Of a stretch of 64,000 nucleotides of DNA, positions 19,714 through 33,815 are shown piece by piece. A program made the position numbers and the translations under genes. Position 1 is the stretch's first letter. Each line of letters starts with the position of its first letter. The stretch is taken from contig CAXXVS010000003.1 of assembly GCA_963674755.2 (NCBI GenBank), positions 2,272,001-2,336,000 on the forward strand. Reading direction: 5' to 3'. The notes beneath the pieces are model-generated. The model had not been told where the DNA came from. It searched no databases and saw only the letters and a program-made list of their open reading frames with translations. The DNA comes from Desulfobacterales bacterium (GTDB lineage: Bacteria; Desulfobacterota; Desulfobacteria; Desulfobacterales; UBA5852).

Positions 19714-20739
19714 ATGGACAGAACGGTCGTCATCAAAGCTATCCTCGGCAATGTACTGATGCGGGAGATCATCGCCATCCGTCTGGATACCCTGTGGAAA
19801 ATGCTGGGGTGGGTCCAGGCCGATGCGCTGCCGGACATCGATGAAGAAGGGGCCACCGGCAAGTTCGACAACAAGGGCGCCATCTTCGTCCCGGGCGGTT
19901 TGATCTACTGCGATGTGGACGAGAGGCCGATCGCGTATTCTTCCGAGCCGGACTGGGATGCCGCCGTTTTCCGCCGGCGCATACGGGCGGCCATGAAATA
20001 CGACAACGCCACCCTGCTTTTCCCGGACGGCGTGGCGCCGGGCGTCAACCTCGACAGCGGATTCTTTTCCCGCGCCGCCCGCCGGATCAATATGTTCAAG
20101 AAGGCCGCCTTCCGGCGCAAGAAGAAGATCGGCCCCAAGATGTCCCTGGAGATCAGCTCCGAGGACATCGTTCAGAGCCACACCCCCATCTACATGACCG
20201 GGCCCTTCGGGGCGCGCACCCGCATCAGCACCTGTATTGCCGCCGCCCTCGTGGATCCGCCCCTGTATTACGCCCACCTGAAAACGGAATTCAACCTGGA
20301 CGACGACAAGGCCCGCCGCGTTATGGACGGCATCGACCAGGCCCTGGATCCGGGCCGCGGCCGGAAGGGCAACCTCCTCTACCCGCCCTACATCGTGGTG
20401 TGTCACGACACGCGCTACAAAAAGGCCTCCCTGACCGGCTTGACCCGCATTCTGGGCATCGGCAAGTTCGGTGAATTCGCCACCTTCACCCTGGAAAGGC
20501 TCGGCCGGCGGAACATCAACGAACTCAAGCGCAAGGGGTACGATCCGGACCAGGTGGAAACCATGGCCGAAACGGACGGCATCCGCGTGGCGGGTCTCCT
20601 GCGTCTCTACGCCCAGACCAACCCCGGCAAGCGTTCGGCCCAGTATGACCTGCACGTGGTATCGCCCCGCCGGGACCTCGACCTGGACATCGCCGCCATC
20701 GAGACCGAAGCCCGCCGCCGCTACGCTATCAGCGATTAG
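19714..20739 (+). CDS. hypothetical protein, possible divergent DisA_N/diadenylate-cyclase fold
   Basis: Host-like codon usage and RBS; ordered motifs KGAIFV, KYDNATLLFPDG, FGARTR, IVVCHDT. Confidence is for the CDS; the fold call is weaker. Confidence 0.7.
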   Translation: MDRTVVIKAILGNVLMREIIAIRLDTLWKMLGWVQADALPDIDEEGATGKFDNKGAIFVPGGLIYCDVDERPIAYSSEPDWDAAVFRRRIRAAMKYDNATLLFPDGVAPGVNLDSGFFSRAARRINMFKKAAFRRKKKIGPKMSLEISSEDIVQSHTPIYMTGPFGARTRISTCIAAALVDPPLYYAHLKTEFNLDDDKARRVMDGIDQALDPGRGRKGNLLYPPYIVVCHDTRYKKASLTGLTRILGIGKFGEFATFTLERLGRRNINELKRKGYDPDQVETMAETDGIRVAGLLRLYAQTNPGKRSAQYDLHVVSPRRDLDLDIAAIETEARRRYAISD

Positions 20740-20856: not shown

Positions 20857-20944
20857 TTGAAATCCAATCGTTTTCCTGCTAAAAACAATCATCCTCGCAA
20901 ACAAGCCGGTTAATCCCACCATACCGCGTCAGCGGTTGGCTTTC
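20857..20944. repeat. ~88-bp direct repeat, copy A
   Basis: Aligns with 33389-33475 with few substitutions and one indel. Confidence 0.9.
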
Positions 20945-21114
20945 GAGCCGCTATAAAATCGGGGCGCCGATGTTCCAAAGCCCCCGTCATCAATACGTCG
21001 GATTCCTGATGGAAAAAGGAATCTATTTCAGCCACCCGCAGTACGGTCGCCCGTTCCTATGTCGGCCGGCAGATTTTCTGTTATGAAGTTATATGATTCA
21101 GCGTATTACTAACG

Positions 21115-21294
21115 GGATGGTTAGGCGTCTTTTAGTGACATATAACCAACTTCGCCAAAATGCGATGAATAGCAGCATAAGCATCTAAATATATATGTAA
21201 TTATCGCATGGAACTGAGGAAAAATAGTGGATGGTTAGGCGTCAAAAGGTGACGCATTTGCTAAAATCATTAGGACATCTAATCTAGGTTAACT
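21115..21294 (+). other. putative attI-like region / 5' boundary of the first gene cassette
   Basis: GGATGGTTAGGCGTC (contains the GTTRRRY core) occurs at 21115 and 21229; GTTAACTGA at 21288 is a 1-mismatch complement of the attC left end TCAGCTAAC. Confidence 0.5.
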
Positions 21295-21308: not shown

Positions 21309-22433
21309 ATGAAATCTCTGCCAAATCAAAATGACCAACCAACTACCGTGTTTATATTTGGAGCGGGCGCCTCTTATGGTGATGGTGTACCCCTCCAGGC
21401 AAATATCTTACCTCTAATAATTAAGGATGAAGATCCACAGCTTAAATACTCTGAAACGGCCAAAAGGCTTCGTGGCTTCCTTACCGAACACTTCGCTCAT
21501 GGCGAACAAACACCTTCATTGGAGGAAGTCTTTGGTTTCATAGAATTTTTTATAAATAACAATCTTTCTCTTTCAAAACAATGGGGAGTGAAAGAGCTAA
21601 TTGAAATAAAAGGTGATTTTACAAAGACTGTTCATTACCTAATCAGTAAAAACACTAAAAGAAGCGAAACATTCAGAGAGTTTTGGAAAAAGGTTCGCTC
21701 AAATGAGCCTGAAATCGGCGTAATTACGACAAATTATGATACTTTGATTGATGAAGCTTTTGATGCAATTTATCCGGAATGCCTCATTGATTATTGTCTT
21801 GATTTTGTCAATTTTAGGCACCCCAACGCCGGAGTACCTTTTGACTGGTGGATCGATCCAAAAAAACCGACTGAACACTTCGAGTACAGCAGATTAACCA
21901 GAATTAAACTAATCAAGATTCACGGTAGTTTAAATTGGAAGTATTGCTCCTGTTGTGGACAGATAGCACTTACACCATGGCAACATCAATACGATTTAAA
22001 GCTGGACTCGTTCCAATCATTTTTCGACTCTCAAATCACTGAATGCCCTTTTGATGGTGCCAGGTTGATATCTTTGCTACAGATGCCTACCCATCTAAAA
22101 TCAAACAATAATTTCATTTTTAGCAAACTCTACGATGAAGCGTCATATCTTGTAGGAAACGCAAAACAACTTGTATTTGTGGGTTATTCATTTCCAGAGG
22201 CTGATGTTCACATCCGCGCACTTGTGCGGAGGTGCTTTTCAGAGGAAGGAAAAATTATCGTTATAAATAAAAGTAGAGCCAAGGATCTAAGATACCGATA
22301 TGAAGGACTGGCAAGAAATGTAGATTATTATGAATACACCTTTGAACGGTTCGTGAAATCACGGATATTTGATGAACTACTGTCAGCTAACAAAACACTT
22401 CAGGGGACGGCTCGCTTCGCGCGCCGCTCCTGA
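21309..22433 (+). CDS. SIR2-like (SIR2_2) protein with CxxC Zn-ribbon-like insert, cassette-borne
   Basis: FIFGAGAS, ITTNYD, KIHGSLNW, CSCC...CPFD, VGYSFPEAD; AT-rich; C-terminus reads into attC. Confidence 0.9.
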   Translation: MKSLPNQNDQPTTVFIFGAGASYGDGVPLQANILPLIIKDEDPQLKYSETAKRLRGFLTEHFAHGEQTPSLEEVFGFIEFFINNNLSLSKQWGVKELIEIKGDFTKTVHYLISKNTKRSETFREFWKKVRSNEPEIGVITTNYDTLIDEAFDAIYPECLIDYCLDFVNFRHPNAGVPFDWWIDPKKPTEHFEYSRLTRIKLIKIHGSLNWKYCSCCGQIALTPWQHQYDLKLDSFQSFFDSQITECPFDGARLISLLQMPTHLKSNNNFIFSKLYDEASYLVGNAKQLVFVGYSFPEADVHIRALVRRCFSEEGKIIVINKSRAKDLRYRYEGLARNVDYYEYTFERFVKSRIFDELLSANKTLQGTARFARRS

Positions 22434-22448
22434 GCGTAGGCGTTGGGC
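22385..22448 (+). other. integron attC site (64 bp)
   Basis: AGCTAAC ... TCAGGGG-loop-CTCCTGA ... GTTGGGC (GTTRRRY). Confidence 0.85.
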
Positions 22449-22716
22449 ATTGAAAGATTGCATCTATGAATGAACTCTCTAATATAAGTACCTCTTTACT
22501 CTTTAAAAAAAACCTGAGTGAAATTGATCAGATATTGATGTTTTTTCTGGATGATATCATTCTCTAAACGGTCATTAACGGGAAAAGCTTTCCAACTCCA
22601 GTCGGCACTTGATGCTTTTGTAATCTTTTTCAATGCTCCATTTGCAGTGGTAAGATTTAAAGATATTAAGCGTTCAAAAAAAACAGGAAAATCATTAGCC
22701 AAAACGAGGATTGCAT

Positions 22717-23274
22717 ATGAGTGATTATCTTAGTGAAGACGCATATCATAATACACGCCAAGCTTATAATGATGCTGAACTTGAAGTCAGCGGAAGATAT
22801 GATACATGGATTTTAACTTTATCCGGTGGTGCGCTCGCCATATCAATTACATTTATAGAAAAGATTGCTAAAACCCCAACAGCAGATTCTCTAATCTGGC
22901 TTAAGATTTCATGGGCGAGTTTGGTTGTGTCGCTTTTATTTGCATTGGTTTCGCTAGTCACAAGCCAATCTGCGATAAGAGAAAATAGAAAAGAATTGGA
23001 TAATGCATATTTAGAAAACCGTTCTCCTCGTCTATCTTTTCCAAAATGGTTTACATGGATAACAGAAAGCTTGAATTGGTTTTCGTTATTGTCTTTTATA
23101 TTAGGTGTAGTTTTTTTATGTGTGTTTTCCTTCTCAAATATAGATCATAGTGTATCAAATAGAGGAACGAAAAATGAGCAAAAATCAACAAGATCCAAAA
23201 TCCAAGAGACTTCAACGGGTAAAAATAGAGGGAAAAAACATTCCACAGAAGTCATCGTCAACCCCAAAAAATAA
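22717..23274 (+). CDS. hypothetical membrane protein with 3 predicted TM segments
   Basis: RBS GAGGA; hydrophobic runs WILTLSGGALAISITFI, ISWASLVVSLLFALVSLV, WFSLLSFILGVVFLCVFSF. Confidence 0.8.
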   Translation: MSDYLSEDAYHNTRQAYNDAELEVSGRYDTWILTLSGGALAISITFIEKIAKTPTADSLIWLKISWASLVVSLLFALVSLVTSQSAIRENRKELDNAYLENRSPRLSFPKWFTWITESLNWFSLLSFILGVVFLCVFSFSNIDHSVSNRGTKNEQKSTRSKIQETSTGKNRGKKHSTEVIVNPKK

Positions 23275-23323
23275 GCGTGGATTTGTTCCACCACCACCAC
23301 CGCCAAAGAAAAAACAGAAATAG
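23174..23323 (+). CDS. 49-aa basic proline-rich peptide (not in the ORF track)
   Basis: RBS AGAGGA before ATG 23174; MSKNQQDPKSKRLQRVKIEGKNIPQKSSSTPKNKRGFVPPPPPPKKKQK. Confidence 0.55.
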   Translation: MSKNQQDPKSKRLQRVKIEGKNIPQKSSSTPKNKRGFVPPPPPPKKKQK

Positions 23324-23392
23324 ATTTGGTGTGGGTACATAAACAAAGTGTTTGAATGCAGGTGAATTAATAGAAGAATAGGATTCGCTATA

Positions 23393-24481
23393 ATGCAAAT
23401 GAAACAAATACTTGTAGTGTTTGCAAATCCGGAAGGAACAGACCCATTGAGACTGGGTAATGAGAATAAGGCTATACTTGATAGCGTAAAATTATCAAAA
23501 AATCGAGACAACCTTTCGATTGACTTCAGGCACGCAGCTACGACACATGATGTCAGGAGGTCTTTACTTGAGGAGAATTATAATATTATTCATTTTTCTG
23601 GGCATGGTACAGGTAAGGGCCTTGCATTTGAAAATGAATTAGGAGAAATACAGATTGTACCTCAGGCAGCTCTTGCTGAGCTCCTTGCAGCTTATAGCCC
23701 GCCCCTAGAATGTGCGCTCCTTAATGCTTGCTACACACAGGAACAGGGAAACCTTTTTTCTTTGCGTATCCCATACACTATTGCCATGAGTGGCCCAATA
23801 TCGGATCCATCGGCTATTGAATTTACGCGAGGCTTCTATGATGCAATTGGCGCAGGGAAAGATATTGAATTTGCTTATAACGAAGGATGTAGAGCAGTTG
23901 ATTTGGCCGGACTAAAGGATGACCTGGATCCGGTCTTTATAACCTCAATTCAAGAAGAAATGAAAGTATTTTTTCATAGTTGCCTGCCACAAGCAGAGCG
24001 GCAATCCGATACGAGCCTGCCGTCTTGGCTTCAAGGAGATTGTTTGAGGGTATTTGAGAGCAGCATTCATAGAGCTAGATTCAGTGAACTTGGACTGCTA
24101 ACCACACGTCATATATTGTTGGCGTTGTTGGAACTTGAGAATGGCATTTCGAAAACAGCCATAAAATACATTGGCGGAGATGTTGGGATTATAGCCAAGG
24201 AGATTTCAAATAATATTGATAATGATACAGAGTCGAACCAAAGGGTTAGAGCCACAAAATCAGTTAGGGAATTAATAGAGACATTGAATATTAATTCTAC
24301 CGCTAAAGGGTCTAATTATTTAGATGATGGCATAATTTTTCAAGTCGCATTGGAGCAGGACGCAGACTCCGTTACTATTGTGGAATTATTAAATGACCTC
24401 AAATGCGAGAAGGAAAAGCTATTACAATCTATTGCACAAGTCAGAAAAGCCCAAGATTCTACTCCAAGTAGAAAAATTTAG
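23393..24481 (+). CDS. CHAT (caspase-like) protease domain fused to a Clp N-terminal repeat-like domain
   Basis: FANP..T.PLRL, catalytic HFSGHG and LLNAC, FTRGFYDA; C-terminal LLTTRHILLALLE and TKSVRELIE...GSNYLDD resemble the two Clp_N repeats. Confidence 0.85.
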   Translation: MQMKQILVVFANPEGTDPLRLGNENKAILDSVKLSKNRDNLSIDFRHAATTHDVRRSLLEENYNIIHFSGHGTGKGLAFENELGEIQIVPQAALAELLAAYSPPLECALLNACYTQEQGNLFSLRIPYTIAMSGPISDPSAIEFTRGFYDAIGAGKDIEFAYNEGCRAVDLAGLKDDLDPVFITSIQEEMKVFFHSCLPQAERQSDTSLPSWLQGDCLRVFESSIHRARFSELGLLTTRHILLALLELENGISKTAIKYIGGDVGIIAKEISNNIDNDTESNQRVRATKSVRELIETLNINSTAKGSNYLDDGIIFQVALEQDADSVTIVELLNDLKCEKEKLLQSIAQVRKAQDSTPSRKI

Positions 24482-26329
24482 GTGAAAAAGATGAATAATT
24501 TTGAAACACCACCAAGGAGTACCACCAAAATCAAACCAAGGACGAAGATGTTTAGGTGGTGGAAGGAAGCCGAACTGATTTCGAACAGGTGGTTTATTCA
24601 CAGAGCAATTCCGCCCAGTCAAATGGGGATTATTTATTTCTGCTTTGACATTAAACTTGGCCAACCTATGGTAGTCAAGTCATTACCTTTCGAATCTTTG
24701 TCGGATATGAAAGCGCAAGAACGATTTGTTAATGAATGTAAAACCTGGGTGGATTTAGGAAACGATCCGAATATTGTAAAAGCGTATTTTGTTGAATTAG
24801 TGAATGGGTATCCATATGTTTTCGTAGAATGGATAGATGGCAAAGACATTTATAATGCCGGACTGGATGCATGGATAGGGACGCATAGCCTGTCTATCGA
24901 TCGCTCATTAGATATTGCCGCCCAGATATGTGATGGTATGAGTTATGCCGCAAAAATATTTAAGAAAAAGGAACAAGTATTCATACATCGGGATATCAAA
25001 CCCTCTAATATATTGATTACGGCTGATTGGAGGGCTAAAGTTACTGATTTTGGCATCGCAAAGATGAGGTTGAATGAGTATCTTGTAAAGTCTAAAGGGG
25101 TGAAAGAATCTTCCCTGGAGTATAGTGATTTCCTTGGAACTCCTCAATATATGTCGCCAGAACATTTCGATGATCCTACTTCCGTAGATTGTCGCAGTGA
25201 TATTTATTCTTTTGGTTGCACTCTCTTTGAAATGATAACCGGACAACATGTGTTTAAATCTGATTCTTGGGAGGCATGGCGAGAAGCTCATGTGAACCAA
25301 TCAGCACCCAGACTCAAAGAAATTTGCCCAGAAATACCACAACATATTGATGAATTGATCAAAAGCTGCCTATGCAAAAATCCAGGAGATCGGCCACAAA
25401 GTTTTGAAGAATTAAAAGAGCGGCTGTTTACTAACGTTTTGAATTCAATGAAGAAGCTGGATAAAACCAGCTCGTTTTTGGATTTAATGAATAAAGGCAC
25501 GTCGCTTGACTCTTTGGGAAAATTTAACGATGCAATTCCATACTTTGATAAAGCTGAGGGAGCTCTAAGTGCGATTGATGAAGGACTCGACAAAACTATC
25601 TCTGAGTTTATGCTTGCCTGTAACCGGGCGATTACCCTTGAACATATAGGAGATTTTATTGAATCAATCGCTCAGTGGGACAAAGCATCGGAGTTGGCTG
25701 AAAAAATACCATCTGGTTATAGGAGTATGGTCTCCAGCCTTCCACTTAATAAAGCTTCAGCACTGTTGGGTAAAGTTTTGACCATTGCAACTAAAGGTGA
25801 CATTAACCAAGCGATCGAACTTTGCAGAAGTGTTTTGGATGAACAGCCTAATAATGCGATTGCAGTTTCACGAATGGGATACTTATTAGTGCGTAATGAA
25901 CAATATCATGAAGCTATACCTTGGTGTGAGCGTGCTATTAAGGTTAATGCTCACGATCCTGACTCCTTTGCAAATCTTGGGGCAGCTCTTCACGAAGTTG
26001 GCGAAATTGAACGAGCCCATAAAGTTCTTCAAAAAGCTCTTGACTTGGCTCCAACACATTCAAAAGCCTTATATAGCATGGGAACTTTACTGCTCCAGAA
26101 TGGCTCAACTGAGCAATCTATTCAGTATTTGCGGAAAAGCGTCAAGATAAATCCTCAGTTTAGTGAAGCGTGGAACCATCTCGGGATAGCCTTGCATAAC
26201 TCCAATGACCCAGATTGTAGAACTTGCTTTGAACAGGCTTTACGCGTAGATCAAAATAACCAAATGGCATTGCGCAATTTGACAGGTATAATTCAACAAG
26301 AGGAAAATTCCAGTCCAAGGGGTATTTAG
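24482..26329 (+). CDS. Hanks-type Ser/Thr protein kinase with C-terminal TPR array
   Basis: VVK, RFVNE, HRDIKPSN, DFG, GTPQYMSPE, DIYSFG; TPRs such as SFANLGAAL and AWNHLGIAL; true start may be ATG 24491. Confidence 0.93.
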   Translation: MKKMNNFETPPRSTTKIKPRTKMFRWWKEAELISNRWFIHRAIPPSQMGIIYFCFDIKLGQPMVVKSLPFESLSDMKAQERFVNECKTWVDLGNDPNIVKAYFVELVNGYPYVFVEWIDGKDIYNAGLDAWIGTHSLSIDRSLDIAAQICDGMSYAAKIFKKKEQVFIHRDIKPSNILITADWRAKVTDFGIAKMRLNEYLVKSKGVKESSLEYSDFLGTPQYMSPEHFDDPTSVDCRSDIYSFGCTLFEMITGQHVFKSDSWEAWREAHVNQSAPRLKEICPEIPQHIDELIKSCLCKNPGDRPQSFEELKERLFTNVLNSMKKLDKTSSFLDLMNKGTSLDSLGKFNDAIPYFDKAEGALSAIDEGLDKTISEFMLACNRAITLEHIGDFIESIAQWDKASELAEKIPSGYRSMVSSLPLNKASALLGKVLTIATKGDINQAIELCRSVLDEQPNNAIAVSRMGYLLVRNEQYHEAIPWCERAIKVNAHDPDSFANLGAALHEVGEIERAHKVLQKALDLAPTHSKALYSMGTLLLQNGSTEQSIQYLRKSVKINPQFSEAWNHLGIALHNSNDPDCRTCFEQALRVDQNNQMALRNLTGIIQQEENSSPRGI

Positions 26330-26647
26330 GGGACATTCTATATTCCCCTTGTCAACAAAATAATTAAAATAGAATAATCAAATAGTTACAATTGTTGTCA
26401 GAGACAAGAAACACTTCTCCTGTCGGTTTTGTAGATCGGCGAGTATCTCTCCAGTCGGCGAACTCATGGCCTGATCGTTACAGTTATCCGGTGTCCAGCC
26501 GGAAACGGCGGCACCCATCATTCCTTATCCAGGCTTGGAGTTCAGAGAGAGGCCCGGGTATTGTCCCTCCAGAGGTTATGACCTCAACGTTGTTGAAAGG
26601 GCTCTCTCGCCGAACAAACAGCTTTGTTTGTAATTTGCTACAGCGCC

Positions 26648-27302
26648 TTAACTGGTCAGCAAAGCGGGATCATAATCTGTATCGTCGCGCATCATACACC
26701 AAGCAATGACCAGCATTTTGACGGCCAATTTAACCCGCATCTTGGTCCGGATGCCGCGCTCACGTTCCCGGCCTTGAAGATAACGGGTGAACAAAGCGCG
26801 GAAGCCATCGTTGTGATACGAGGCGATCTGCGCTGCTTGATAAAGAGCGTAACGCAGGTCGCTGTTACCACGTTTGGAGATCACCGGTACGGCTGTATCA
26901 CTGGTCTTGCCGCTGCGTTTAGCATTCAAATCATAACCGGCCAAACGGATGAGCTGCTTTCGTCCGGCAAAGCGGTGCGGATCCCCGATGCGGGCGATCA
27001 CCTGGGAGGCGATGTAGGGGCCAAAACCCGGGATCGTTAGCAGTCGCCGATAGGATGAGAAGCGCTGACAGATTCGTTCAATGCGCTTTTCCGTGCGCTC
27101 AATTCGTTCGCGCAAATCATACAGGCGATCCACCAGCAGCCGGGCTTCAAAGCGGACCGCGGCATCCGTGGGGCAGCCGATGGAGACCGCCGCGGCATCG
27201 TAGATGCGCTGCAAACGCTTGACTTGACGCAGTCCCCGGTCGCGATCGGTCACCCGGCGGAGGAACTCGTTAAAGGGCATGGCGCTGATCGTGCGCGGAT
27301 CC
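26648..27302 (-). pseudogene. IS110 recombinase, C-terminal part
   Basis: LLTIPGFGPYIAS, RSGK, ISKRGNSDLRYALYQAA; in frame with 30001-30634 once IS21 and one TSD are removed. Confidence 0.92.
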
Positions 27303-27393
27303 TGTCAATGATCACCCTAATGAGGCCACCTATGATCGCCTTAATGGGGCCATTTCAAACCGACCAAAAAGCGGTTTTCGGACCGGCTTCAAA

Positions 27394-28197
27394 CTATTGT
27401 TTTTCACCCCCTTTCGAACCGCCGTTTTTGGGCGTTTTTTGACATGTGTTTTTAGCTGATTTGGAGACCGGTCGCGGGGAGCGATAGCTCTTGCCCTCCA
27501 GCACGACGGTGTAGGCACCGTGGCGCAGCCGGTCGACGGTGGCTTCCCCCAAAATCCGGTTTGGAAAGGCGTCGGTCCATTCCGGGATGTCCAGGTTCGA
27601 GGTCACGATGGTGCTTTTGCGCTCGTAGCGCTCTGAGATGACATCGTGGAAGTCCTCGTCCTGAGCGGGTTTGAGGGGTTTAAGGCCGAAGTCGTCAATG
27701 ATCAGGAGATCGACGCCGGCGATCTTTGCAAAATGCCGATCGTAGCCGTTGGTTGCCCGGGCGGCGTTTAGCTGGGAGAGCATCTTGGATGCGGAAGTAA
27801 AGAGCACGCTGTGCCCGTTTCGAATGGCGCTGTGGCCGAGGGCCTGCGCCAGATGGCTTTTTCCCGTTCCGCACGGGCCGATGATGAACACACAGACCCG
27901 CTCGGCCATGAACCGGCACGAGGCCAGCTCCATGACCAGGGCGCGATTGATGTTGGGATTGTAGGCGAAGTCAAACTCTTCCAGGGTTTTCTGGTTACGG
28001 AAGTTGGCCCGCCGCAGGGCGGAGGCTAATTTCTTCTGGTTGCGACGGGCGATTTCGTCGGTGATGATGGTGGCCAGAAAGTCCATGTAGGACATCTTGT
28101 TTTCGATGGCCTGCCGGTTGCGCGACTCGATGGAGTCCAGGATTCCCGACAGGCGAAGCTGCTTTAGCATGGGCGTCAGATCGGGTATCGGATTCAT
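27394..28197 (-). CDS. istB: IS21 helper AAA+ ATPase
   Basis: GPCGTGKSH, LLIIDDFG, RYERKSTIVTSN, DRLRH. Confidence 0.96.
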   Translation of the reverse strand: MNPIPDLTPMLKQLRLSGILDSIESRNRQAIENKMSYMDFLATIITDEIARRNQKKLASALRRANFRNQKTLEEFDFAYNPNINRALVMELASCRFMAERVCVFIIGPCGTGKSHLAQALGHSAIRNGHSVLFTSASKMLSQLNAARATNGYDRHFAKIAGVDLLIIDDFGLKPLKPAQDEDFHDVISERYERKSTIVTSNLDIPEWTDAFPNRILGEATVDRLRHGAYTVVLEGKSYRSPRPVSKSAKNTCQKTPKNGGSKGGEKQ

Positions 28198-29744
28198 GAC
28201 GGCCTCCTTTCCCGGTACACCTGGTGGCGAAGAAAACGGCCGTTGCCGGTGTACGCCGCAGCTAGCGGGATCACGTTGGGCTGCTCGTAGAGCGGCGCCT
28301 GGTCAAGGCCCTGATGCAGGATGCTTTTTACCGTACGGTATTTGACGTTGTCGAAGTGAAGCGCCCGGCGGCAGGCGGCTTCCAGGCGGGCCGTGCCGTA
28401 CTTTTTGCTCAAGCCGATTACGCCCTGGGCCGCGCGCAGATTGTCGAGCACTTTGTGGGCAAACAGCCGGCGGACGAGCCGATGACAATCCGGGCCGACG
28501 GCTTCGGCCTGCTTCAGACACCACTGTGGGTCCTGCATCTTGTAGGCCAGGGCTTCCGGCGGCATGTGGCCGTCGACCGTCGAGCGCTGGCCGGCGCGCT
28601 TGAGCCGCGGGTGGGTGGCCACGAGCTTCACGTCCTGGTAGAGTTTTACGGTCGTGTCGGTGGCTTTTAGCATCAGCTCCTGGTGCACCAAGCGGAAGGG
28701 CGCCGAGTAGTAGGCCTTTTCAAACTGCACATGGCAATTGCCGTGCACCTTGACCCGGGTCCAGACGGCGAGTTCCACGGGAACATCTGGCAGCGGCTTT
28801 AAAAAGTGTTTTTCGGTCTCCGCAAACATCTCCAGCGGCCTTCGGTGGGTTGTGCCGTGGATGCGGTTGCCGGCCCTTTCCAGCAGCCAGCGGACAAGCT
28901 GCTCGTTGGCGTCGGCCAGGGTTCGGAAGGTACGAAGCGGCACGAAGTTGTTTTTGACATATTTGACACCGGACTCGACCCGGCCCTTTTTCTGCGGGTC
29001 CCGGACGGGACACGGCGAAATGAGAAAGCCGTATCCTTCGGCCAGCTCGCCGTAGGAGCGCTGAACGTCCGGATCGGTGTAGCAGGCCCGGGTGATGGCG
29101 CACTTGGGATTGTCGATGATCATTTTGGCCGCCACGCCATTGAAAAACGCGAATGCGCGCCGATGGCAGGCCAGCCAGGTTGCAACTTTCTGGTCGGTGA
29201 CGATCTCGGCATACATGTGGCGGCTGAAGCACAGCGTCATCACAAAGATCCAGGTCTTGATCACCGCGCCGGTAAACACGTCCTTGATCGTGGGCCCTTT
29301 GCCGAAGTCAACCTGGGCTGCTTCGCCTGGGGCAAAGTCCAGAACGCAAGAGGCTTTGGGGCTCGCGTGGCGCAGCTTTCTTACCTGGCGCCGGACAGAG
29401 GAATAACTGCCGGAAAATCCGAACTGCCCGACCAAGGCCTCATAGATCGTCGTGGCTTGAATGCCCTCTGCGACCCATTGCTTGATCTGATCCGCATGCG
29501 GCTGGGTCAACGGGGCTTGGTTTTGGCCGGGGGATCTTTTAACCTCGAAGATCTTGGCGAGTTGTTCGTCGTCGGGCAGCGGGCCGCTATTGAGCCAGCC
29601 CTTTTGCCCAGCGACCTCCCGCACGGCGGCGCATTTGGTCCGTCCGATCAGTTGGCTTTTCGCGATGGCGCGGTCGCTTTGTCCAAGGCGCATACGGTGG
29701 ATGACTTGTCGGTACTGATGCATCTCGATTCTCCTGTTGGCCAT
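28194..29744 (-). CDS. istA: IS21 DDE transposase
   Basis: PGEAAQVDFG, IIDNPK, KGRVESGVKY; 4-bp overlap with istB. Confidence 0.95.
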   Translation of the reverse strand: MANRRIEMHQYRQVIHRMRLGQSDRAIAKSQLIGRTKCAAVREVAGQKGWLNSGPLPDDEQLAKIFEVKRSPGQNQAPLTQPHADQIKQWVAEGIQATTIYEALVGQFGFSGSYSSVRRQVRKLRHASPKASCVLDFAPGEAAQVDFGKGPTIKDVFTGAVIKTWIFVMTLCFSRHMYAEIVTDQKVATWLACHRRAFAFFNGVAAKMIIDNPKCAITRACYTDPDVQRSYGELAEGYGFLISPCPVRDPQKKGRVESGVKYVKNNFVPLRTFRTLADANEQLVRWLLERAGNRIHGTTHRRPLEMFAETEKHFLKPLPDVPVELAVWTRVKVHGNCHVQFEKAYYSAPFRLVHQELMLKATDTTVKLYQDVKLVATHPRLKRAGQRSTVDGHMPPEALAYKMQDPQWCLKQAEAVGPDCHRLVRRLFAHKVLDNLRAAQGVIGLSKKYGTARLEAACRRALHFDNVKYRTVKSILHQGLDQAPLYEQPNVIPLAAAYTGNGRFLRHQVYRERRPS

Positions 29745-29850
29745 GGCATTCCTCCCGGCGGCTGGTGGTTTGCCGGAAAGACTTACCAGATTGTGGATGT
29801 AAGGTCCGAGATGCTTTTTGGTTTTATACGCGTTTTTCCCTGCGGCAGGT

Positions 29851-30000
29851 GGCCTCATTACGGTGATCACCAACTGGCCTCATTAGGGTGATCATCAAGT
29901 GGCTCCATTAGGGTGCTCACAAAGTGGCCTCATTAGGGTGATCACAGGGTGGCCCCATTAGGGTGCTCATGGAATGGCTCTATAGCAGTGACCATTAACA
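29851..30000. repeat. six tandem 25-bp repeats at the istA-proximal IS21 end (transposase binding sites)
   Basis: GGCCTCATTAGGGTGATCAC-like unit at exact 25-bp period; two inverted copies at 27303-27352. Confidence 0.9.
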
Positions 30001-30634
30001 GATCCAGGCAACTGCGGACGATGGCCAGATTCTCTTTAAGACAACTGCCCCACAGGCGATCCATCTCGGGGAAGTGGCGAACCAGAAGCCCATTGCGGAT
30101 CTGCATGCGTACGCTGTGTTCATCGCGTTTGAGCCGCTTGCGAAGTGAAAGCAAGCTGCGCAACGCAGTAAGCTCCGCCGAAGGCTTTTCAAAGAACTGG
30201 CATTTGCCCTGCGCCATCAGGTCGGCCACATTGGCGCTGTCTTTGGTGTCGTTCTTATCCCAGCGCCCGTCAAGACTCTCGCGGTTGTCGGCAATGGCTT
30301 TGTTGGAGACCAGTACCAGAAGTTGATCCTGTTCCAAAAGCCAGTTGGCCAAAGGCTTGTGGTAATTGCCGGTGGGCTCCAGTCCGAAAGCGACCCTTCG
30401 GCAGGAATGGGCCACCATCAGTTGTTCAGCTCTTTCGATGAGCTGCTCGAAACCGGTGCGGTCGTTGTCAAAGATCAGGCGCTTTAGGAGCGTCTTGCCG
30501 GTGGCGGTGCCGAAGAAGGCATGATGGCGTTCCTTAGCCACATCGATGCCGACGAGCATATAATCCTGGCTGCCTCGCACGGAGGTGCGAAATTGACAGT
30601 ATTCCTCGTACCTGCTAATTTCTCTGTTACCCAT
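30001..30634 (-). pseudogene. IS110 recombinase, N-terminal RuvC-like DEDD part
   Basis: VGIDVAK, GLEPTGNY, KNDTKDS; RBS GAGGAGG. Confidence 0.92.
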
Positions 30635-30768
30635 AATAGCCTCCTCGTAGCTCGTGTTGAAGGTTTGTCCACCTTTGTGCTACCTGGAGGCTATTTTCTT
30701 TTCAAGGCGATAATTACTTTTGTTTTTACTACTCTTGGAGGTATATTCTCTAACTATTTCAATATATA

Positions 30769-30821
30769 ACGTTGTTGACTAAATGTACAAGAGTTGGATT
30801 TGTACACTTAGTCAACAACGT
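30769..30821. repeat. 22-bp-stem inverted repeat at the IS110 5' end
   Basis: ACGTTGTTGACTAAATGTACAA-N9-TTGTACACTTAGTCAACAACGT (1 mismatch). Confidence 0.85.
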
Positions 30822-31357
30822 CCCTTTTCCTCTAGGCGGCACCGAAACGCTCAAAATGAAATTGACGCTGTCCTTTTAAAACAGAGCTTGGATGGATCAT
30901 CGCAATTGTCTCGCAATGTGGTGGTCAATAATGTGCAAGCAGGAAGTCTGAGCGATAGGACCCCTCAGGAGAAACCGAAGATCCGGGATAGGGCCGCTTT
31001 AATGGATGATGTCAGTATGACCTATCGCTAGCCGACAGCCATACGTCAGCAATGCTTAAAAAATCAAATCGTTTTTGGCGGGCCATCCCATCGCGCCTGC
31101 AATTCAGGGGCGGCGACCCCTGCTGCAATAGCCATCCCGTTGCGGATGTTCCGATCCGCTGGGGAAAGGGGCTTATATGCCAGCGGCATCGAGGGTGTTA
31201 AATGCGGACATCAATCCCAAAAAGCGTAGGAAAGGGAATGTGGTTGTCGCTGTATGGGGATAGTCGAAGGATATGAAAACCGGCCATCGGTAACTCATCG
31301 GGCGTTGCAAGCGTGCTCAAAGTGCCGCTCCGCTTCCCTCCAATGATAACGTGTGAC

Positions 31358-33388: not shown

Positions 33389-33475
33389 TTGATATTCAAC
33401 CGTTTTCCTGCTAAGAACAACCATCCTCGCAAACAAGCCGGTTATCCCTCCATACCGCGCCAGCGGTTGGCGTTC
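33389..33475. repeat. ~88-bp direct repeat, copy B
   Basis: Matches 20857-20944. Confidence 0.9.
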
Positions 33476-33815
33476 TGCCGCATCGACCCCAATCGCTCCA
33501 AACGCGCTTTTCAGGAACTCATCCAGGACTGGCGCGGTATCCTGGTTAGTGACCGTTACGGTCTCTATCGCAACGGGGTTGACGGCCGGCAGGCCTGTCT
33601 GGCACACCTGATCCGCAAGGCGGTTGGATTGTCGGAAAGGCGAACGCTCAGCATCAAACTATTCGGGCAGACCATGACAGGCTTTTTGCGAAAATTGGTC
33701 AGCTTTGCCCATGCGCTACCATCGCCTGAAACTTGGAACGATTTCTATGTCCACCTGCACTTCACCTTAAAACTTTTTGAAGATGAAAAGGATGATGCCG
33801 GTAAATTGGCCCCGG
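33476..33815 (+). pseudogene. IS66-family transposase internal fragment
   Basis: GILVSDRYGLY and RQACLAHLIRK; no proper start or end. Confidence 0.8.

Follow-up and report, generated by a model that had tools for sequence, protein, structure and literature searches.

Organization of the locus

The DNA considered here (the window) is a 64,000-nucleotide stretch of a Desulfobacterales genome (assembly GCA_963674755.2, contig CAXXVS010000003.1, positions 2,272,001 to 2,336,000 of the forward strand), and the subject of this report is an AT-rich run of genes at window positions 22717 to 26329, all located on the plus strand. Read 5′ to 3′, these genes specify a protein with three transmembrane segments (3-TM protein), a Pro-rich peptide, a CHAT protease domain fused to a Clp N-domain (CHAT-ClpN), and a Ser/Thr kinase extended by TPR repeats (kinase-TPR). 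The four genes exhibit a GC content of 0.35 to 0.41, compared to approximately 0.58 genome-wide (genome size, 6.7 Mb). A first-pass annotation, made from the letters alone, had proposed that they form an undescribed defense system starting right after an attC site. All of its open reading frames (ORFs) and the catalytic dyad of the CHAT domain were indeed present, as was the attC, while the 3-TM gene was found to start 268 bp beyond that site rather than directly behind it.

A caspase-like domain fused to a Clp N-domain

The CHAT-ClpN gene (23393 to 24481, plus strand) encodes a protein of 362 residues which comprises a CHAT caspase-like domain (residues 1 to 185; 23393 to 23947), assigned by Pfam, alignment, and fold match, a Clp N-domain of two repeats (23996 to 24460), and a C-terminal T-P-x-R tail (T357-P358-S-R360; 24461 to 24481, stop codon included). 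The putative catalytic residues are H71, within the motif HFSGHG, and C113, within LLNAC, and in a 15-row alignment C113 was conserved in all rows and H71 in 14. Pfam recognized CHAT above its cut-off (E value of 1.8e-7) and Clp_N below it (E value of 0.0034). An AlphaFold2 model based on 15 sequences, with a mean local confidence score (pLDDT) of 85.5, matched SAVED-CHAT (8tl0) first (E value of 4e-10), followed by the N-domains of ClpC (8b3s, 6ucr, 2y1q, and 5hbn; template modeling scores of 0.71 to 0.78 on the target), while a profile built from the last 160 residues matched ClpC N-terminal domain chains at E values of approximately 5e-10 to 1e-9. The first part of the protein thus possesses the caspase-like fold and His-Cys dyad of clan CD, from which proteolytic activity is predicted, and the second adopts the two-repeat helical fold of the ClpC N-domain, bearing out the earlier description of this region as Clp_N-like. 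No PADLOC model matched CHAT-ClpN, and NCBIfam returned nothing above cut-off among the matches listed.

At least 256 hits to CHAT-ClpN were obtained, and the best 120 included 14 full-length CHAT-ClpN fusions (44 to 100% identity, query included), which clustered with a support of 94 when a quick tree was built from 50 of the 120 CHAT domains. Related CHAT domains among the same 120 proteins are fused to a receiver (eight cases), kinase (one), or FHA domain (one), so that phospho-control of this CHAT group has a precedent in domain architecture. The combination of CHAT with Clp_N is not confined to this unit, as the ESM Atlas holds a 78-member cluster of this composition (664 aa, mostly Actinomycetota; score, 0.84), which is treated here as a lead only. 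P0105 does not belong to these 14 proteins and represents another, independent fusion of CHAT with ClpN; in the quick tree, its CHAT domain lies closest to that of P0114, a protein with an FHA and a winged-helix domain. P0105 was excluded from the motif counts given below.

The kinase-TPR gene and its probable truncation

The kinase-TPR gene (24491 to 26329, plus strand) encodes a Hanks-type Ser/Thr kinase with an N-terminal TPPR motif, followed by TPR repeats. Its ORF spans 24482 to 26329 (612 aa) and opens, as first annotated, with a GTG at the base following the CHAT-ClpN stop codon; the start is more probably the ATG at 24491, because relatives begin there and a Shine-Dalgarno-like AGGTG lies upstream. 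The VxK, alphaC-Glu, HRD, DFG, and GTPxY..PE motifs are intact, as expected of a Hanks-type kinase, whereas the GxGxxG loop is replaced by RA[ILM]PP[ST]xM[GS] in all four kinases of the clade. PADLOC returned generic kinase matches only, which cover the kinase fold alone (E values down to 4e-56), and the NCBIfam scores against MAD6 and PglW were far below cut-off. An AlphaFold2 model from a four-row alignment was set aside for structural claims, its N-terminal half having a pLDDT below 50.

Among the best 120 kinases, just two close relatives were identified, P0218 (885 aa) and P0219 (943 aa), at 58 to 59% identity, the next being at 45%. Both align up to the last residues of the window kinase and then continue into additional TPR repeats, and the window protein is 270 to 330 aa shorter, approximately one-third of the length being gone. 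Its stop codon abuts an IS110-family insertion sequence (26329 to 30825, minus strand), itself split by a nested IS21-family element (27394 to 29873), and the IS110 border falls on the last base of that codon, inside a G run. Furthermore, a metagenome contig of 204 bases matches the window up to 26318 and then continues with 121 unlike bases. Based on the longer relatives, the IS110 border, and this contig, the window kinase has probably been truncated at its 3′ end by the IS110 insertion, and as it lacks about one-third of its length, the window copy of the unit may be impaired. A search of the rest of the genome did not recover the missing C-terminus, and in the 1.5 kb to the right of the element the scores for it remained within those of shuffled sequences. 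The IS110 element has short terminal inverted repeats (GGGAC...GTCCC), and further copies lie at C1:78.4-80.2 kb and C2:1887.7-1889.4 kb.

Pairing of CHAT-ClpN with one kinase clade

Outside the window lineage, DNA was retrieved for one other locus, which a metagenome pattern scan yielded as two records, L002 and L003, that belong to one organism (their overlap is 100% identical). Here, the CHAT-ClpN gene is followed after 170 bp by a kinase gene of the same clade; in L002 (1693 to 1729), the kinase and TPR parts are separate ORFs with overlapping stop and start codons, which reflects either a natural split or a frameshift. Of the remaining close relatives, P0219 shares its source and an equal longest contig with the CHAT-ClpN protein P0009 (JGI, 4972), and P0218 does so with P0197, a non-CHAT ClpN fusion (ENA, 7650); these four proteins are all single-contig singletons, and their linkage is read from equal contig sizes, not from DNA. 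Accordingly, each of the three close relatives of the kinase is linked to a member of this ClpN subfamily, and within the window lineage a metagenome contig (X4 record 10) spans the CHAT-ClpN/kinase junction. The conserved core therefore consists of two genes, one encoding an effector-ClpN fusion and the other a member of a single Ser/Thr kinase-TPR clade.

This two-gene unit is rare. The full-length CHAT-ClpN fusion was absent from the 400 phylum and 400 class genomes searched, among them six congeners; CHAT-only matches occurred in 7 of the class genomes, and a kinase search of 390 genomes identified 6 with distant kinases only. Weak ClpN matches in 17 of the 400 phylum genomes, lying in frames of 750 to 900 aa, were read as ClpB/ClpA and rejected. 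Pattern scans with the ClpN part and the kinase N-terminus recovered nothing from GTDB genomes or IMG/VR, and a tblastn search of plasmids gave no match to the unit.

ClpN on exchangeable effectors

A HMMER search with the ClpN part returned 19 hits and defined a subfamily with the signature LTT[RQ]H, from which ClpC-like multirepeat hits were excluded; one candidate, P0207, was judged to be a chance hit. In P0196, ClpN is preceded by a TIR domain (ThsB model, E value of 7e-53), in P0203 by a ProA-like domain resembling the N-terminus of anti-phage ProA (NCBIfam E value of 4e-39, far below cut-off), and in P0199 by a hydrophobic N-terminus. P0197 and P0206 carry ClpN behind domains without a family assignment, of which that of P0206 is possibly nuclease-like and that of P0197 is not CHAT. 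In P0201, a fragment corresponding to the beginning of a kinase comes after ClpN, and two members of the subfamily are labeled Ktedonobacterales/Ktedonobacteraceae. One small domain is thus found on diverse effectors, and, judged by its domain neighbors, the ClpN subfamily appears to behave like an effector-associated adaptor.

A shared T-P-x-R motif and a remodeled ClpN pocket

The two partners share a short motif at opposite ends. TP-x-R/K is present within the last 16 residues of all 14 full-length CHAT-ClpN fusions and in none of 105 CHAT proteins without this ClpN, while TPPR occupies residues 6 to 9 in all four clade kinases, the pattern being found in the first 40 residues of none of 117 other kinases. 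The same tail also ends the TIR-ClpN protein P0196 and P0197, and the P0197/P0218 pair retains both motifs.

A second feature concerns the pocket of the Clp N-domain. In ClpC, Thr81 helps to hold the phosphate in the Glu32 pocket. The determinants of phosphoarginine (pArg) binding by ClpC are Glu32 and Glu106 (PMC12583610). In CHAT-ClpN, Glu32 aligns with an arginine (Arg239 in the window protein) that is invariant in 11 of 11 rows, Thr81 is retained as Thr288, and the place of Glu106 is remodeled, the second TEH motif being of the DDG type, so that the pocket departs from that of the ClpC pArg reader. A basic residue in place of an acidic one would be well suited to a phospho-Thr ligand.

Proposed mechanism and alternative explanations

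We propose, with a probability of roughly 0.45, that the pair constitutes a phosphorylation-switched conflict module carried on an integron-type cassette, its role being probably anti-phage. A conflict role is suggested by the effector exchange, the sporadic distribution, and the location in a cassette array behind a SIR2 gene, and defense is thus deduced from context. We infer the following functional steps. The TPR repeats would sense a trigger and activate the kinase, which would phosphorylate the TPxR threonine, both on the N-terminal arm of the kinase itself and on the tail of its partner. The ClpN pocket, which is the pArg site in ClpC, would then bind the phospho-Thr peptide, so that the effector docks on the kinase as well as on the tails of neighboring effectors, and the resulting clustering would activate the protease, of which the 3-TM protein is probably not a substrate. 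Activation by oligomerization, a point of likeness with this model, has been described for SAVED-CHAT (10.1101/2023.06.23.546230). The switch from kinase to protease that the first-pass annotation had envisaged is plausible; the effector exchange and the shared motif, as well as the IS110 border with its likely truncation, had been overlooked.

Several observations weigh against this proposal. Just one pairing outside the window lineage is seen at the DNA level, and a word search, which was incomplete and missed the L002 kinase, identified a kinase partner neither for TIR-ClpN nor for 11 of the 13 remaining CHAT-ClpN proteins. The motif counts derive from related sequences and are not independent events, and the exact tail is missing in the distant ClpN relatives P0199, P0203, P0205, and P0206. 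The pocket argument is one of alignment, and the atypical Pro-Pro loop makes kinase activity less than certain. In addition, gene sets combining CHAT and kinases also occur in sigma-factor signaling.

In a more far-reaching form of the proposal, which we regard as unlikely in its full extent, ClpN has been rewired from a pArg to a phospho-Thr-Pro reader, the kinase arm seeding and the TPxR tails extending a head-to-tail chain that activates clustering-dependent effectors, whether CHAT, TIR, or nuclease.

The alternative that survives best, although it is itself improbable, holds that T-P-x-R is a cleavage site of the CHAT protease: a cut after the arginine would free a toxic kinase as the real effector, the tail of the protease would be a mimic or a site of self-cutting, and ClpN would serve as a sensor or dock. 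Clan CD proteases often cleave after arginine, both motifs lie in low-confidence and probably flexible ends, and lone kinase domains act in defense (PD-T4-6 models). A comparable cascade has been proposed for Haliangium, in which PCaspase activates the toxic Ser/Thr kinase PCk (10.1101/2023.06.23.546230). However, P0196 and the P0197/P0218 pair retain the motif in the absence of a fused CHAT domain, which favors phosphorylation or docking over cleavage; moreover, a cut in the tail would remove just one to seven residues, and the best-conserved residues of the motif are Thr-Pro.

About as improbable is a role outside defense, in which the unit would be a reduced stress-signaling module, namely, a kinase-gated CHAT-Clp protease stripped of its AAA+ motor and sigma genes. 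The 78-member CHAT plus Clp_N cluster of the ESM Atlas can be cited as a lead in this direction. No sigma gene was found in the island or in L003, however, and the replacement of CHAT by TIR or ProA-like domains, the sporadic distribution, and the cassette location point to conflict instead.

The four-gene reading of the first-pass annotation, in which arrest or death would result when the kinase-activated protease cuts the 3-TM protein or the Pro-rich peptide, is less probable still. The 3-TM protein (22717 to 23274, plus strand; 185 aa) belongs to an unnamed family and is hydrophobic at approximately residues 29 to 47, 57 to 80, and 115 to 140, with no Pfam family above cut-off and no PADLOC or PHROG match; the 49-aa peptide (23174 to 23323, plus strand), which contains GFVPPPPPP, overlaps the end of the 3-TM gene in another frame. 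In favor of a single system, the peptide and CHAT-ClpN genes lie on the same strand, 69 bp apart, with no attC between them, and 93 to 99% identical pieces of the 3-TM, CHAT-ClpN, and kinase genes co-occur in the metagenome runs X4, X5, and X9, which stem from three other studies, whereas SIR2 had no cover among the contigs listed for these runs. The four genes thus probably travel as one cassette in the window lineage.

The wider distribution argues otherwise. At L003, the 2.3 kb preceding CHAT-ClpN contain no 3-TM gene, and relatives of the 3-TM protein (28 to 43% identical where aligned by BLAST) were detected in 7 of the 400 phylum genomes and in 1 of 395 genomes of the class, none of which has the CHAT-ClpN/kinase pair within 9 to 14.5 kb (seven loci) or 3.5 kb (L056) or a close ClpN match anywhere in the genome (for G540, as judged from record numbering). 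Nor was a contig bridging the 3-TM and CHAT-ClpN genes seen among the matches listed, from runs that had been found with this stretch. Co-occurrence of the homologues, as anticipated in the first-pass annotation, holds for CHAT-ClpN and the kinase clade and, outside the window lineage, was not seen for the 3-TM gene, and the proposal that the latter or the peptide is the substrate is not supported. Because eight genomes hold 3-TM relatives without the pair, we read the 3-TM gene and its peptide as a separate module, one cassette carrying two modules. The 3-TM family numbers at least 75 proteins (75 hits, query included). Pro-rich peptides follow the 3-TM relatives at L039 (6964 to 8058; three in tandem), L045 (6906 to 7561; one), and L056 (1489 to 2086; one), and a similar tail is fused in frame in 7 of the 75 hits. 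The combination recurs as low-GC insertions, and no family model was found for it.

Finally, the notion that the TPxR motif is shared by chance or as a relic, with the genes being loosely linked cargo and ClpN merely binding unfolded proteins, would be in keeping with the small number of independent loci, the shortness of the motif, and the ClpN-kinase fragment P0201 (fusion or fission could leave similar linkers), but it is the least probable of all, given that the motif is held at opposite, variable ends of two unrelated proteins across 40 to 60% divergence and is absent from both control sets.

Integron cassette context

The unit is most readily interpreted as part of a detached integron array. 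The head of the array (21107 to 21250, plus strand), which is outside the two-gene unit, contains two GGATGGTTAGGCGT sites (21115 and 21229), which we take to be attI-like from their resemblance to attI anatomy. This element is also present at C3:1409969/1410083 and C1:756947, each time behind what remains of the 3′ part of an integron integrase gene. More generally, several AT-rich gene runs start with a head element of approximately 220 bp that contains one or two GGA[TA]GGTTA[GT]GCGT sites and follows an integrase remnant. The sole full-length integron integrase of the genome is encoded at C2:2339256-2340191, and attC-bearing arrays are located near C1:720-733 kb and C2:2326-2336 kb.

Upstream of the studied cassette, a separate cassette carries a SIR2_2 gene (21309 to 22433, plus strand; Pfam SIR2_2 E value of 3e-9; PADLOC SIR2), which is likely a defense gene; it is stand-alone and has a Cys-rich insertion (CSCC...CPFD). 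The attC that ends this cassette and opens the next (22385 to 22448, plus strand) has recognizable R boxes and a bottom-strand fold of approximately -13 kcal/mol, and is the only convincing attC-like hairpin in 22370 to 26400. The upstream boundary of the studied DNA is thus that of an integron cassette, and the match of a metagenome contig (X5 record 16) begins at 22431, i.e., at the attC. A second attC at the 3′ end was not found up to 26400, where the insertion sequence occupies the end of the cassette. Scans for promoters (16 versus 14.9 expected) and terminators (4 versus 4.8) gave chance results. DNA near-identical to this stretch was found in marine-sediment metagenomes, and no RNA data set was among the matches listed.

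Directly before the island, 19714 to 20739 encodes a 341-aa protein with no Pfam match. A segment of approximately 88 bp beside the array head (20857 to 20944) is repeated, with 90% identity, 12 kb downstream (approximately 33390 to 33480), where it adjoins other fragmentary mobile DNA.

Relation to known systems and significance

The closest conceptual parallel is provided by the effector-associated domain (EAD) systems of Kaur et al. (2020 and 2021; PMC7159879 and PMC8195603), in which a small noncatalytic helical domain on varied effectors (caspase-like, TIR, or nuclease) is likewise linked to a constant component. Coupling in those systems is homotypic, a copy of the domain being present on the core, whereas the kinase described here has a short motif only: no Clp_N was listed for it or its two relatives, and neither the island nor L003 has a MoxR-vWA, GTPase, or NucA core. 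ClpN itself appears once in the main text of the 2020 study, fused to vWA in a variant of the ternary system (PMC7159879).

The type III-B SAVED-CHAT/PCaspase/PCk cluster (10.1101/2023.06.23.546230; 8tl0) offers the nearest solved CHAT fold and combines a protease and a Ser/Thr kinase in one cluster. The present unit differs in having ClpN and a TPR-bearing kinase and no SAVED sensor, PCaspase, sigma factor, inhibitor, or link to a cyclase, CRISPR, or CBASS, and so lies outside that cascade. The McsB-ClpC pArg system (PMC12583610; 5hbn) follows the logic proposed here, in that proteolysis is turned on once a Clp N-domain has recognized a mark set by a kinase. In contrast to McsB-ClpC, the kinase is of the Hanks type rather than an arginine kinase, Glu32 is replaced by Arg and the Glu106 motif is remodeled, and the protease is fused directly, with no AAA+ motor or ClpP.

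In agreement with the first-pass annotation, no named system was recognized, PADLOC giving no match for CHAT-ClpN or the 3-TM protein and generic matches only for the kinase. A Hanks-type domain is shared with the defense kinases PD-T4-6, MADS6, and BREX PglW, whose partner genes are absent here; Stk2 is a further stand-alone defense kinase. A literature search, which took in few subscription papers, revealed no account of the CHAT-ClpN/kinase-TPR unit or of the 3-TM/Pro-rich peptide module, its coverage excluding supplements such as the source data of Kaur et al. The two-gene unit is thus apparently a previously undescribed variant of adaptor-coupled conflict systems, and the 3-TM/Pro-rich peptide module represents a second unnamed unit of interest.

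Bacterial caspase-like proteases are known to be triggered by nucleotide signals, by RNA-bound CRISPR complexes, or by NTPase sensors. The unit points to direct kinase control of such a protease, for which Thr357, Arg239, Cys113, the threonine of the kinase arm, and the HRD motif are the key residues. If ClpN is a swappable phospho-reader, it would represent a new class of adaptor for conflict systems with exchangeable effectors, and a well-studied chaperone domain would be put to a new use. Should the phospho-Thr-Pro reading hold, the unit would constitute a bacterial immune switch that relies on a proline-directed kinase motif, read by a domain for which no such role is known.

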